A stretch of 39,640 nucleotides of DNA from a virus (IMGVR_UViG_2563366929_000005), one strand, 5' to 3'; counted from the stretch's first letter, positions 13,902 through 18,548 are shown. Translations and numbers: made by a program. Notes: a model not told the origin generated them from the letters alone.

Positions 13902-13918
13902 TTTTGTGGAGAAAGTTG

Positions 13919-14299
13919 ATGCGTGATATTCAGATGGTTCTTGAACGCTGGGGGGCATGGGCTGCAAGTGGTAACACCGGGGTGGACTATTCTCCGATCG
14001 CTGCCGGATTCAAAGGACTTTTACCATCTGCCACTAAACCACGTCCGGCCTGCTGCGATGATGACGGACTTATCATTGAAAACTGTCTTGCTCGTCTGAA
14101 GCAGAAAAAACCTGAGGAGTATTCGCTTCTCATTGCTCATTATTTGTTGCGAATATCAAAAAGACAGATAGCCAGGACGAGAAAGAAAAGCGAAAAAGCA
14201 ATACGAATTGAGATGCAGATAGCCGAAGGGTTTATTGACGGATGTTTGTCTGTGCTGGGGGTAAGACTGGAGATGGACGACTGGCTGCTAAAAAAGTAA
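13919..14299 (+). CDS. Q: Late-gene antiterminator Q-like protein (126 aa from ATG 13919)
   Basis: GGAGA SD before ATG 13919; MRDIQMVLERWGAWAA...CCDDD resembles a Q-antiterminator family (from memory); followed by an intrinsic terminator. Confidence 0.65.
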   Translation: MRDIQMVLERWGAWAASGNTGVDYSPIAAGFKGLLPSATKPRPACCDDDGLIIENCLARLKQKKPEEYSLLIAHYLLRISKRQIARTRKKSEKAIRIEMQIAEGFIDGCLSVLGVRLEMDDWLLKK

Positions 14300-14367: not shown

Positions 14368-14392
14368 AAACCCGCCGCGAGCGGGTTTTTTT
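14368..14392 (+). terminator. Intrinsic terminator downstream of Q (tR'-like)
   Basis: CCCGC-CGCGA-GCGGG followed by TTTTTTT. Confidence 0.6.
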
Positions 14393-14450: not shown

Positions 14451-14729
14451 GTGACGGCGCAGGTGCCGTATACCGATGTCTGGACGCATAAACCGGTGCA
14501 GTTCTATCCCGGGAAACATCCGTGCGAAAAACCGGCAGAAATGCTGCAGCAGATAATCAGCGCTAGCAGTCGTCCGGGTGACCTGATTGCAGATTTTTTC
14601 ATGGGGTCGGGTTCGACAGTGAAAGCGGCACTGGCGCTCGGGCGTCGTGCAATTGGCGTTGAGCTGGAGACTGAACGTTTTGAGCAGACGGTTCGGGAAG
14701 TACAGGATTTAGTCAGCCAGAACGGATGA
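14451..14729 (+). pseudogene. C-terminal remnant of an N6/N4 DNA methyltransferase (92 aa, GTG-initiated ORF)
   Basis: HPCEKPAEMLQQIISASSRPGDLIADFFMGSGST is the C-terminal SAM-binding region of PF01555-type methylases; no DPPY catalytic block upstream. Confidence 0.55.
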
Positions 14730-14769: not shown

Positions 14770-14845
14770 GGCCCTTTAGCTCAGTGGTGAGAGCGAGCGA
14801 CTCATAATCGCCAGGTCGCTGGTTCAAATCCAGCAAGGGCCACCA
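14770..14845 (+). tRNA. tRNA with CAU anticodon (Ile2/Met type)
   Basis: 7-bp acceptor GGCCCTT/AAGGGCC, T-arm GCTGG-TTCAAAT-CCAGC, anticodon loop CTCATAA, encoded CCA end. Confidence 0.8.
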
Positions 14846-14852
14846 TCACATA

Positions 14853-14929
14853 CCGCCATTAGCTCATCAGGATAGAGCACCAGCCTTCGAAGCTGGTTGC
14901 GCGGGGTTCGAGTCCTCGATGGCGGTCCA
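14853..14929 (+). tRNA. tRNA-Arg (anticodon UCG)
   Basis: Acceptor CCGCCAT/ATGGCGG, anticodon arm CCAGC-CTTCGAA-GCTGG, T-loop TTCGAGT, CCA end; boundaries +/- 2 nt. Confidence 0.72.
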
Positions 14930-14942
14930 TTATCTGTACCCT

Positions 14943-15019
14943 GCGTTGTTAGCTCAACCGGACAGAGCAATTGCCTTCTAAGCAATCGGTCACTGGTTCG
15001 AATCCAGTACAACGCGCCA
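14943..15019 (+). tRNA. tRNA-Arg (anticodon UCU)
   Basis: Acceptor GCGTTGT/ACAACGC, anticodon arm ATTGC-CTTCTAA-GCAAT, T-arm ACTGG-TTCGAAT-CCAGT, CCA end. Confidence 0.8.
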
Positions 15020-15059: not shown

Positions 15060-15258
15060 AAATGTCTCACAATTCAGACGGTTGACAGTTGTCTGTTTTG
15101 CGGGGAGTTTGTTAAAAGAAACTGGCATGGTGAATCCCCCTGTGCGGATGGGCAATCAGCGAGTAGGTATATGGGATAATCGCGGATTCAGGTGCTGGTA
15201 CTGAATTCACCGGGAGGCACCCGGCACCATGCAGTTGACTGAAACCATGTATACTCTC

Positions 15259-15290
15259 AGGCCCCACGCACATGTGTTGGGGCCTTTTTA
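15259..15290 (+). terminator. Strong hairpin plus T-tract in the non-coding region upstream of the lysis cassette
   Basis: AGGCCCCA-cgcacatgtgt-TGGGGCCT then TTTTT; a second hairpin GCCCG...CGGGC at 15304-15323 is preceded by A8. Confidence 0.4.
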
Positions 15291-15460
15291 CATGCAAAAA
15301 AAAGCCCGCATATGGATACGGGCGGCAAGGAACAAAAAACGTGAAGTGATCTATTCAGCCAGTGGATAATACCCTGACGTTACCATATTGCGCAATCGCG
15401 CATTCTTTCTTTTTCGCTCCCCTTATAACTACGCCATCCGTTCGCTGCGGAGGTGAGGCT

Positions 15461-15676
15461 ATGAAATCCATGGACAAAATTTCAACGGGCATTGCCTACG
15501 GCACCTCCGCAGGCAGTGCTGGCTACTGGTTTTTACAGTGGCTTGATCAGGTCAGTCCGTCACAGTGGGCTGCGATTGGTGTACTGGGGAGTCTGGTTCT
15601 GGGCTTCCTGACTTATCTGACAAATCTGTACTTCAAAATCAGAGAAGACAAGCGTAAGGCTGCACGGGGAGAGTAA
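15461..15676 (+). CDS. S: Pinholin (phage 21 S21-type), 71 aa with dual-start motif
   Basis: [28 protein letters not shown]... matches the S21 pinholin from memory, including the MKSM dual start; GGAGGTGAGG SD. Confidence 0.85.
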
Positions 15677-15680
15677 TTCA

Positions 15681-16031
15681 ATGACTCAAAACTATGAACT
15701 GATTGTGAAAGGGATCCGCAATTTTGAGAATAAAGTTACGGTAACTTTAGCGTTACGGGACAAAAAACGCTTTGACGGTGAAATTTTTGACCTGGACATC
15801 TCGCTGGACCGTGTTGAAGGTGCCGCGCTGGGGTTTTATGAGGCAGCAGCCAGAAGGAGCATCAGACAGGTCTTCCTGGATGTTGCTGCCGGGTTATGTG
15901 AAGGGGATGAGCAGTCGCCGGAAAAGCGCCCCGTAATTTTAGAGGCGCAGAATGTGTGGATAACCTACAAAGGAAAGCTACCAGGAAGAATTACTGGTTC
16001 TCTGAAGACTCCTCCGGAATCACAACCTTAA
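15681..16031 (+). CDS. Hypothetical protein (116 aa) between holin and endolysin
   Basis: GGGAGAG SD, tight spacing, ordinary codon composition; no recognisable motif. Confidence 0.55.
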   Translation: MTQNYELIVKGIRNFENKVTVTLALRDKKRFDGEIFDLDISLDRVEGAALGFYEAAARRSIRQVFLDVAAGLCEGDEQSPEKRPVILEAQNVWITYKGKLPGRITGSLKTPPESQP

Positions 16032-16094
16032 GTCACTGACCGGAACAGATAAACCTGTCCGTGGGCAGAAACCGATAAATCCTGATAAATATCC

Positions 16095-16628
16095 ATGAAC
16101 GCAAAAATCAGATACGGCCTGTCGGCTGCCGTTCTGGCACTGATTGCCGTCGGTGCGCCCGCGCCTGATATTCTCGACCAGTTTCTGGATGAAAAAGAAG
16201 GTAACCACACAACGGCATACCGCGATGGTTCCGGCATCTGGACCATCTGTCGGGGTGCCACGATGGTGGATGGAAAACCCGTTTTTCCCGGTATGAAACT
16301 GTCGAAGGAAAAATGCGACCAGGTCAACGCCATTGAGCGTGATAAGGCGCTGGCATGGGTGGAGCGCAATATTAAAGTACCACTGACCGAACCACAAAAA
16401 GCGGGTATCGCGTCATTTTGTCCCTATAACATTGGCCCCGGTAAGTGTTTTCCATCGACGTTTTATAAGCGGCTGAATGCTGGTGATCGTAAGGGCGCAT
16501 GCGAGGCGATTCGCTGGTGGATAAAAGATGGTGGGCGCGATTGCCGCATACGTTCAAATAACTGCTATGGACAGGTTATTCGTCGTGACCAAGAAAGCGC
16601 ATTAGCCTGTTGGGGAATAGATCAGTGA
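16095..16628 (+). CDS. R: SAR endolysin (lysozyme-type), 177 aa
   Basis: N-terminal weakly hydrophobic Gly/Ala-rich SAR segment ([17 protein letters not shown]) followed by a lysozyme-like core; paired with a pinholin. Confidence 0.82.
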
Positions 16629-17092
16629 GCAGAGTCGCCGCGATTATTTATGCTCTGGTTATCTGCATCATCGTCTGCCTGTCGTGGGCGGTCAATCATT
16701 ACCGTGATAACGCCATCACCTACAAAGAACAGCGTGATAAAAAAGTCAGTGAGCTGAAGCAGCTGACCGCCACCATCGCTGACATGCAGCAGCGTCAGCG
16801 TGATGTTGCTGCGCTCGATGCAAAGTACTCGAGAGAATTAGCCAATGCGAAAGCTGAAAATGAAACTCTGCGCGCTGATGTTGCCGCTGGTCGTAAGCGC
16901 CTGCGGGTCAATGCCAGTTGCTCCGCAGCCGTGCGTGAAGCCACCGGACCCACCAGCGTGGATAATGCAACCAGCCCCAGACTGGCAGACACCGCTGAAC
17001 GGGATTATTTCACCCTCAGAGAACGGTTGATGACGATGCAGAAGCAACTGGAAGGGGCACAGCTATACATTCGTGAGCAATGTCTCAGATAA
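16610..17092 (+). CDS. Rz: Rz-like i-spanin (likely starts at GTG 16625, overlapping the endolysin stop)
   Basis: N-terminal TM helix ([19 protein letters not shown]) then a coiled-coil-like periplasmic region; contains the embedded Rz1 ORF. Confidence 0.78.
16845..17030 (+). CDS. Rz1: Rz1-like o-spanin lipoprotein, embedded in the +1 frame of Rz (61 aa)
   Basis: Lipobox LVVSAC, proline-rich mature part ([17 protein letters not shown]), entirely inside Rz. Confidence 0.75.
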
Positions 17093-17519: not shown

Positions 17520-18059
17520 TTAGAAACTGCGTGGAGCTGTGGAAAGAATGGATGCCAGTTCTTCCTTCGATAAATCCCAGCTTCGATTTACAGCGTCAAT
17601 TTTCTTAAACTCATCAAGCATTGCGTTATAGAGATGTTCTGTACGTGAATGAGTATTGGCAATGGGCTGTTTCTGTTCGGGGAAGCGATCAATTTTCTGA
17701 TATGCCTCAATGATACTGAAGTAATCGCATTCATTATTACCGTCGAAACCTGGGAGCTGAATTGCCCCATCATGTATTTTTAGATGATGGTCACGGACTA
17801 ATTCTTTTTGCTCGTCATCACTAAGTTTCCTGAAAGCATTGGAAAGTCCGCGATACATATTCAAGACAGCAGTAACAAAATCACGATCTTCTTTACTTGG
17901 TTCGTCAACATCCAAATGTGAATATTCGGCCTTGATAACCCAATCATTACCAGATGACACAGCATATTTAACAAGCTGTGGATCAATATCAGTTTCGATA
18001 CCTAGGTGGATGGCAATGTCACATAACAAAATGGTATTGATTTTATCTTTAATATCCAT
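17520..18059 (-). CDS. YfbU (UPF0304)-like protein, 179 aa, opposite-strand moron
   Basis: ATG at 18059 with AGAGGG SD on the minus strand; lower GC than the flanks; motif order (...NMYRGLSNAF...LPGFDG...) resembles YfbU-family proteins from memory. Confidence 0.55.
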   Translation of the reverse strand: MDIKDKINTILLCDIAIHLGIETDIDPQLVKYAVSSGNDWVIKAEYSHLDVDEPSKEDRDFVTAVLNMYRGLSNAFRKLSDDEQKELVRDHHLKIHDGAIQLPGFDGNNECDYFSIIEAYQKIDRFPEQKQPIANTHSRTEHLYNAMLDEFKKIDAVNRSWDLSKEELASILSTAPRSF

Positions 18060-18197: not shown

Positions 18198-18548
18198 ATG
18201 CCAGCACTAATCCCACGCGCCTGCCGTAAGCGTGGATGTGCAGGTACAACCACAGACAGTTCTGGTTACTGCGATAAACATCGTGGCGAAGGATGGGTAC
18301 AGCATCAACGCGGACTGAGCCGCCACCAGCGTGGCTATGGCTCGAAATGGGATGCCATACGTGCGCGCATACTGAAGCGTGATAATCATCTGTGTCAGAA
18401 CTGCCTGCGCAATGGGAGAGCCGTTGAAGCCAGAACTGTGGACCACATCATTCCGAAAGCTCATGGTGGCACGGATGCAGACAGTAACCTGCAGAGTCTG
18501 TGCTGGCCCTGTCATAAAGCAAAAACAGCGCGCGAACGCATCAATTGA
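18198..18548 (+). CDS. HNH endonuclease (116 aa)
   Basis: Cys clusters plus TVDHIIPKAHGGTDADSNLQSLCWPCH; typical position just upstream of the terminase. Confidence 0.82.
   Translation: MPALIPRACRKRGCAGTTTDSSGYCDKHRGEGWVQHQRGLSRHQRGYGSKWDAIRARILKRDNHLCQNCLRNGRAVEARTVDHIIPKAHGGTDADSNLQSLCWPCHKAKTARERIN

Follow-up and report, generated by a model that had tools for sequence, protein, structure and literature searches.

The best-described relative of the gene considered here is ydfR of the Qin prophage of Escherichia coli K-12 (b1555, P76160), which lies in the gene order essQ-ydfR-rrrQ-rzpQ/rzoQ. Residues 1-72 of K-12 YdfR were recovered in a two-hybrid screen with RNase E, a full-length YdfR fusion interacts with Rne 1-597, the catalytic N-terminal half of the enzyme, FLAG-tagged Rne 1-598 co-elutes with Strep-YdfR, and DNase-resistant nucleic acid co-purifies with YdfR (PMC13232886, RNA Biol 2026). 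In the same work, YdfR overexpression changed few transcripts and left growth unaffected, and the authors note that retention of RNA by a contaminating protein is possible (PMC13232886). This work on the K-12 orthologue, the only functional study that we found, is the sole source of the link to RNase E and relied on overproduced proteins carrying tags; it reports no nuclease control for YdfR, so that RNA may bridge the two proteins (PMC13232886). Two screens have also returned the gene. A CPRG screen for envelope integrity lists the Keio ydfR mutant among its hits (PMC3879167 supplement; cited in PMC13232886), a phenotype that may stem from polarity, with read-through from the kan cassette into rrrQ, the next gene downstream, and ydfR is among the genes that triple the streptomycin MIC in an overexpression screen (PMC12924614). 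Our literature search found no paper testing a role of YdfR in lysis, and a paper on the regions flanking stx makes no mention of the gene. YdfR is one of the commonest E. coli prophage genes whose function is still unproven.

The lysis cassettes closest to the one described here are those built around an S21-type pinholin. In phage 21, the S gene is annotated with a dual start that yields the S21-71 antiholin and the S21-68 holin. The S gene abuts an R21-type endolysin gene in phage 21 and phage 434, and an RrrQ-type endolysin gene in VT2-Sakai, with no ydfR in any of the three. We analyzed a stretch of viral DNA of 39,640 nucleotides (IMGVR_UViG_2563366929_000005; the window, below), in which a gene of the ydfR family separates S from the endolysin gene (Table 1). 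The S protein of the window is 98.6% identical to that of phage 21 and its sequence includes the dual start MKSMDK, suggesting that this gene also encodes an antiholin form, as in phage 21. The endolysin has a hydrophobic SAR-like segment at its N-terminus and is identical to K-12 RrrQ at 166 of 177 residues and to phage 21 R at 51 of 177. The TAA stop codon of S occupies positions 15674-15676, the ATG of the ydfR-family gene follows 4 nt downstream, and a spacer of 63 nt separates this gene from the ATG of the endolysin gene.

Table 1. Features of the lysis region and its surroundings, in coordinates of the window.
Feature	Coordinates	Strand	Basis or remark
Q	13904..14299		Upstream of the lysis genes
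Site-specific DNA methyltransferase, N-terminally truncated (92-codon ORF)	14451..14729	+	Pseudogene according to RefSeq in the identical prophage of strain MS8345
Three tRNA genes (anticodon CAT, Arg-TCG, Arg-TCT)	14770..15019	+	Between Q and the lysis genes; CAT tRNA is Met according to ARAGORN and Ile according to RefSeq at the identical locus
STnc100 sRNA (RF02076, gammaproteobacterial)	15096..15295	+	Full-length Rfam match with 133 bits (gathering score, 47); downstream of the tRNA cluster and upstream of the holin gene
S, S21-type class II pinholin	15461..15676	+	Pfam PF04971, E 1.4e-35
Shine-Dalgarno sequence GGGGAGAG for ydfR	15666..15673	+	Within the 3' end of S
ydfR-family gene, 116 aa, ATG start	15681..16031	+	Pfam PF07041 (DUF1327)
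Conserved N-terminal domain, aa 1-72	15681..15896	+	AlphaFold2 model, identity to K-12 YdfR
Variable C-terminal tail, aa 73-116 (...EGDEQSPEKRPVILEAQNVWITYKGKLPGRITGSLKTPPESQP)	15897..16028	+	Low-confidence prediction
AT-rich leader GATAAATCCTGATAAATATCC	16074..16094	+	Immediately 5' of the endolysin ATG
R, SAR endolysin, RrrQ type, 177 aa	16095..16628	+	Pfam PF00959 (Phage_lysozyme)
Rz, i-spanin	16610..17092	+	Pfam PF03245, E 1.6e-49
Rz1, o-spanin, embedded in Rz	16845..17030	+	Pfam PF06085, E 1.4e-18
YfbU-family gene	17520..18059	-	Directly past the lysis cassette; RefSeq name, identical prophage
HNH endonuclease gene	18198..18548	+	Adjoins the P27-family small terminase gene; HNH name from RefSeq, identical prophage

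The 116 amino acid protein matches Pfam family PF07041 over profile positions 1-92 of 93 with 141.6 bits (E 9.2e-42; family cut-off, 25 bits). At the DNA level, the 351-bp gene occurs with 100% identity in many E. coli chromosomes (megablast), and RefSeq labels the identical gene "YdfR family protein" (WP_000193289.1). The matches in PHROGs (2091, 406, and 1085) are each of "unknown function", and no NCBIfam model matches the protein. In comparison with K-12 YdfR, 59 of 74 residues are identical (80%) over amino acids 1-74 (E 1e-45), and beyond residue 74 the two proteins are unrelated. Codons 1-72 have a dN/dS ratio of 0.27-0.42 when compared with diverged homologues, and that of the tail is 0.1-0.5, the latter resting on few substitutions; these values indicate that the ORF is translated and under purifying selection. 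A chance reading frame is ruled out by the Pfam match, the purifying selection, and the conserved synteny, and the ORF is almost certainly a YdfR/DUF1327 gene on this sequence evidence. The description of a well-formed 116-codon ORF with a strong Shine-Dalgarno sequence, flanked by a pinholin and a SAR endolysin, made earlier from the DNA alone (the preliminary description, below), therefore stands: the ORF has an ATG start, a family match, and the signature of selection, the ribosome-binding site lies in a junction conserved in all YdfR variants examined, and the flanking genes are identified by Pfam on S and R and by the identity of S to its phage 21 counterpart. The gene is, however, already known and annotated and is widespread at exactly the position between S and R; it is not a new component of the lysis cassette.

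Of 5426 complete E. coli genomes, 4104 contain DNA related to ydfR, at up to eight sites each. Among 50,697 phage records, 438 encode a holin of the S21 family, and 101 of these (about one in four) encode a YdfR homologue as well, leaving 337 with this holin family and no ydfR. The carriers are mostly Stx1a and Stx2c phages together with other temperate phages of E. coli, including H-19B, BP-4795, Stx2 phage 86, and mEp460. In a set of 88 related loci drawn from species-representative genomes and IMG/VR viral contigs, the order S, YdfR, R is found in every case, followed by Rz where the locus is long enough, and the ATG of ydfR lies 4 nt past the stop codon of S in all 88. Taken together, these sequence comparisons show that ydfR is an optional yet common gene between the S21-type pinholin and the RrrQ-type SAR endolysin of Escherichia lambdoid prophages. 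The preliminary description saw in it an extra gene interrupting a cassette that normally runs from S through R to Rz. Comparison with the cassettes of related phages bears this out relative to phage 21, phage 434, and VT2-Sakai, against which ydfR counts as "extra", but the arrangement is not unusual, given its presence in K-12 Qin and that of related DNA in about three quarters of the complete E. coli genomes. The gene is widespread and named, although only marginally characterised (PMC13232886).

A scan of species-representative genomes found the family confined to Escherichia, Shigella, and two contigs from metagenome-assembled genomes labelled "Veillonella parvula" (L008) and "Bacillota bacterium" (L010). 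The YdfR genes of both contigs are near the Escherichia K-12/Qin type (where their N-terminal parts align with the query, L008 is 80% and L010 70% identical to it), and the contigs are probably mis-binned Enterobacteriaceae DNA.

To describe the architecture of the protein, we combined structure prediction with conservation analysis. The AlphaFold2 model of the full-length protein has a pLDDT of 60, with residues 72-116 below 50, whereas residues 1-75 modelled with a deeper alignment reach a pLDDT of 91 and a pTM of 0.78. This model comprises antiparallel strands at residues 5-14, 18-27, and 34-43, followed by a long helix at residues 50-71, which is consistent with a predicted beta3-alpha fold for the YdfR domain. 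Y53 and E54 are the same in all 38 diverse family members compared, and Y5, E6, L7, V9, D43-R44-x-E46-G47, A57, and the basic helix positions 59 and 62 are conserved. The maximum Kyte-Doolittle hydropathy over 19 residues is 0.69 for YdfR, as against 1.72, 1.87, and 2.73 for S, R, and Rz, respectively; having no membrane segment, the product (pI 6.3) is predicted to be soluble and cytoplasmic. A BFVD structure search returned nothing at E <= 1e-3, and a sequence-profile search of the PDB returned no relative of YdfR. Two structural candidates were rejected: a dsRNA-binding domain (alpha-beta3-alpha), for which the structure match was too weak, and Dip (structure 5ft0), for which the match was likewise too weak, the structure matches being what a generic beta3-alpha unit gives.

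The C-terminal part of the protein varies. Alternative tails in Escherichia give proteins of 72, 103, 114-116, 176-183, and 263-296 amino acids. Against BP-4795, dS is 1.58 for the N-terminal domain and 0.22 for the tail, a contrast which indicates that the gene is a recombinational mosaic. The window is homologous to K-12 Qin in S and the N-terminal domain, and again in R, whereas the ydfR tail and the spacer are not. When the window is compared with K-12 Qin and BP-4795, the mosaic breakpoints fall inside ydfR, in the region 15887-16084.

With regard to expression signals, the junction GGGGAGAG-TAA-N4-5-ATG between S and ydfR is kept in all the variants examined, and we observed it in the window, K-12 Qin, BP-4795, PhiR12_2_star, Stx1_499, and Evi. 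No promoter-like or terminator-like site was found between positions 15461 and 17092, and the nearest terminator-like hairpin lies upstream, after Q (14368-14388). Since no promoter or terminator of its own was found, ydfR is placed in the late transcription unit downstream of Q. It would accordingly be transcribed together with S, R, and Rz/Rz1 from a Q-dependent late promoter, and its translation would rely on the Shine-Dalgarno sequence embedded in the final codons of S. A regulatory RNA in the spacer between ydfR and R was ruled out, because the 63-nt spacer folds no better than shuffled sequence (z = 0.18) and no Rfam family was found in 15461-17092, spacer included.

Beyond Escherichia, the family is sparse. 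A profile search of 1.84 billion representative proteins recovered only 89 clusters at E <= 1e-3. The distant members come from Salmonella enterica, Serratia, Pantoea, and Yersinia; they are free-standing proteins, 72-76 amino acids in length, that correspond to the N-terminal domain alone, and tblastn with these members against sequenced phages found Escherichia YdfR genes only. Their genes are always co-oriented with the late operon and occupy many positions in it. The Serratia gene lies between the tail-chaperone genes and the tape-measure gene, and the Yersinia gene between an I-like tail gene and J; metagenome contigs carry the gene between tail genes M and L (one contig) or between L and K. 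Two further arrangements place it upstream of holins, namely between Q/HicAB and holins of other families in Pantoea, and between Q/HicAB and an S21-type holin in Salmonella, where the gene encodes a tandem double domain.

On this evidence, our main reading is that YdfR is an accessory gene product of the late operon that acts as a modulator of RNase E or RNA, and we give this statement as a whole, mechanism included, a probability of about 0.45. In the late phase of infection, YdfR would associate with RNase E, with RNA, or with both, and thereby alter RNA processing or decay; its targets are probably not the holin, the endolysin, or the envelope. The two parts of this reading differ in strength. 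An accessory role outside lysis is the better founded and, in our judgment, rather probable: the patchy presence of the gene among phages with S21-type holins and the occurrence of relatives in tail operons indicate that YdfR is not tied to lysis. Against this, the gene in Escherichia has its place between S and R without exception (88 of 88 loci). The mechanism is a tentative assignment by analogy with K-12. The residues reported to bind RNase E in K-12 YdfR (1-72) fall within the stretch that is 80% identical in the window, and RNase E/RNA binding is for this reason the likeliest activity; the tail of the window protein differs, however, from that of K-12 YdfR.

A bolder version of this reading can be formulated, in which the invariable position of the Escherichia gene is itself functional. 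YdfR would then be an RNase E modulator placed deliberately in the lysis cassette and co-timed with holin and endolysin, tuning the late S-R-Rz transcript or host mRNAs and, with them, the stoichiometry of the lysis proteins or the burst size, while the DUF1327 family would be a mobile late-operon module with variable convergent cargo in Enterobacterales prophages. We regard this combination of claims as unlikely.

The module component of that proposal rests on the genes that accompany distant DUF1327 members, and these also bear on a different explanation, according to which YdfR is the remnant of a selfish moron, or of one that benefits the lysogen, with no lytic role. The ancestral insertion would have consisted of two genes, DUF1327 and a convergent cargo gene, separated by a hairpin; in the line leading to the window, the cargo would have disappeared and a C-terminal tail would have been acquired. 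In the Serratia, Pantoea, Yersinia, and Salmonella prophages, a small convergent gene follows the DUF1327 gene within 12-41 nt, often past a GC hairpin, the exception being L106, a short contig that ends close to the DUF1327 gene. Phages Evi and PhiR12_2_star have the same pairing at the S-R junction; in PhiR12_2_star the two genes overlap by 53 nt. The convergent gene of Evi shares 57-65% identity with its counterparts in a Pantoea prophage and in an unassigned contig, both of which carry the pair at a different site, an indication that the two genes travel together. Blastp shows no relationship among at least five families of convergent genes, and a single conserved partner gene is thereby ruled out. 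From these comparisons, DUF1327 with its variable convergent gene looks like a mobile two-gene module with variable cargo. The arrangement was recorded in loci L092-L098, L100, L102, and L105-L112, for example at 5001-5519 of L105, 5001-5542 of L107, 5001-5525 of L109, and 2001-2540 of L102.

The varying insertion points and the patchy presence of the gene are consistent with such an origin. However, tblastn found no convergent partner gene in the window, and ydfR has no promoter or terminator of its own there; purifying selection acts on the domain as well as on the tail, and the constant co-orientation of DUF1327 with the late operon points to late lytic expression. In addition, PADLOC assigned no defence family at E <= 0.1 to YdfR or to five convergent partner proteins. 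A remnant without a lytic role is therefore, in our view, an improbable account of the window gene. As for the earlier suggestion of a late-expressed moron, its late, accessory character is retained in the reading that we prefer, but since the cassette contains no promoter-like or terminator-like site, ydfR in the window is not an autonomous moron in the strict sense.

The preliminary description had also proposed a lysis regulator, either an antiholin or a modulator of endolysin release. A membrane antiholin or releasin is ruled out by the hydropathy profile and the absence of a family match. A cytoplasmic regulator would instead contact the pinholin at its cytoplasmic C-terminal tail, or the membrane-tethered SAR endolysin on its cytoplasmic face, and so tune the timing of lysis. 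T4 RIII is a soluble protein that tunes lysis timing through the T4 holin. The constant location of the Escherichia gene between S and R, its translational linkage to S, its predicted co-transcription with the lysis genes, and the appearance of the Keio mutant among the CPRG hits would all suit such a role. On the other hand, YdfR lacks a membrane segment and matches no lysis family in Pfam (where DUF1327 is the only match at E <= 0.01) or PHROGs, and the dual start of S already appears to provide an antiholin form. Moreover, about three quarters of the phage records with the same holin family do without ydfR, distant homologues are found upstream of holins or in tail modules that have no lysis genes close by, and the Keio phenotype may reflect polarity on rrrQ. 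Taken together, these observations make a direct role in lysis timing quite unlikely, and the proposal of an antiholin or endolysin-release modulator is not upheld.

Finally, the gene could act in cis. In VT2-Sakai, R begins at GGGGAGAG-TAA-GCTG-ATG, that is, at the junction which starts ydfR in the window, and ydfR thus takes the translationally linked slot of R. As a side effect, the endolysin gene would be shifted to an AT-rich leader, GATAAATCCTGATAAATATCC, in which we found no Shine-Dalgarno-like purine run. This leader is common to the window and four other ydfR cassettes (BP-4795, PhiR12_2_star, Stx1_499, and Evi) regardless of the sequence upstream of it, and R in ydfR cassettes begins with MNAKI or MNTKI, as opposed to MSRKL. 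The shifted leader may lower or uncouple endolysin translation, and endolysin translation may, judging from these leaders, differ between cassettes with and without ydfR. In its strongest form, this argument would make ydfR a translated spacer that takes the S-coupled ribosome-binding site from the endolysin gene and so reduces or delays endolysin synthesis, the protein being secondary. The exact reuse of the GGGGAGAG-TAA-N4-ATG slot, the conserved leader, and the overlap of the ydfR stop and rrrQ start in K-12 are compatible with it, but a mere spacer would neither keep a selected 72-residue fold with invariant Y53 and E54 across Enterobacterales nor occur in tail operons, which makes this explanation very unlikely.

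As it stands, the finding matters little, since the family is named and occupies the same position even in E. coli K-12. Three leads follow from it: the reported interaction of the conserved domain with RNase E or RNA, the displacement of the endolysin gene from a coupled ribosome-binding site, and the association of DUF1327 with variable convergent genes at many sites of late operons. If the RNase E link holds during induction, temperate lambdoid and Stx phages would join the manipulators of the host's main RNA decay enzyme.

Among known systems, the closest is the Qin prophage itself, which belongs with the window in the same DUF1327 family, has the same gene order, and shares the S-ydfR junction. 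The differences lie downstream of the conserved domain and in the state of the prophage. The tails are unrelated (42 residues in the window and 29 in K-12), the stop codon of ydfR and the start codon of rrrQ overlap (ATGA) in Qin whereas a spacer intervenes in the window, and Qin is a cryptic remnant whereas the window carries head and tail genes.

T4 RI and RIII are known lysis regulators. Endolysin regulators of Mu are described in PMC9239132. Like these proteins and the S21-71 antiholin, YdfR is encoded within or beside a lysis cassette, here one with a pinholin and a SAR endolysin. It is unlike them in having no membrane domain and no match to a lysis family, in being absent from most such cassettes, and in having relatives away from lysis genes.

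The morons of lambdoid phages, such as bor and lom of lambda and the morons of HK97, offer a second comparison. As with these, ydfR is optional and separates two genes that lie side by side in related phages, and its relatives share with morons the many insertion points in the late operon and the combination of a hairpin with a convergent cargo gene. The window gene departs from the moron pattern in lacking its own promoter and terminator; it points in the same direction as the lysis genes, and its translation is linked to that of S.

A third comparison is with phage proteins that target host RNase E, which include T4 Srd (N-terminal half), phiKZ Dip/gp37, and T7 gp0.7. The resemblance to these would be a functional analogy between small phage proteins, YdfR having been reported to bind RNase E (PMC13232886).
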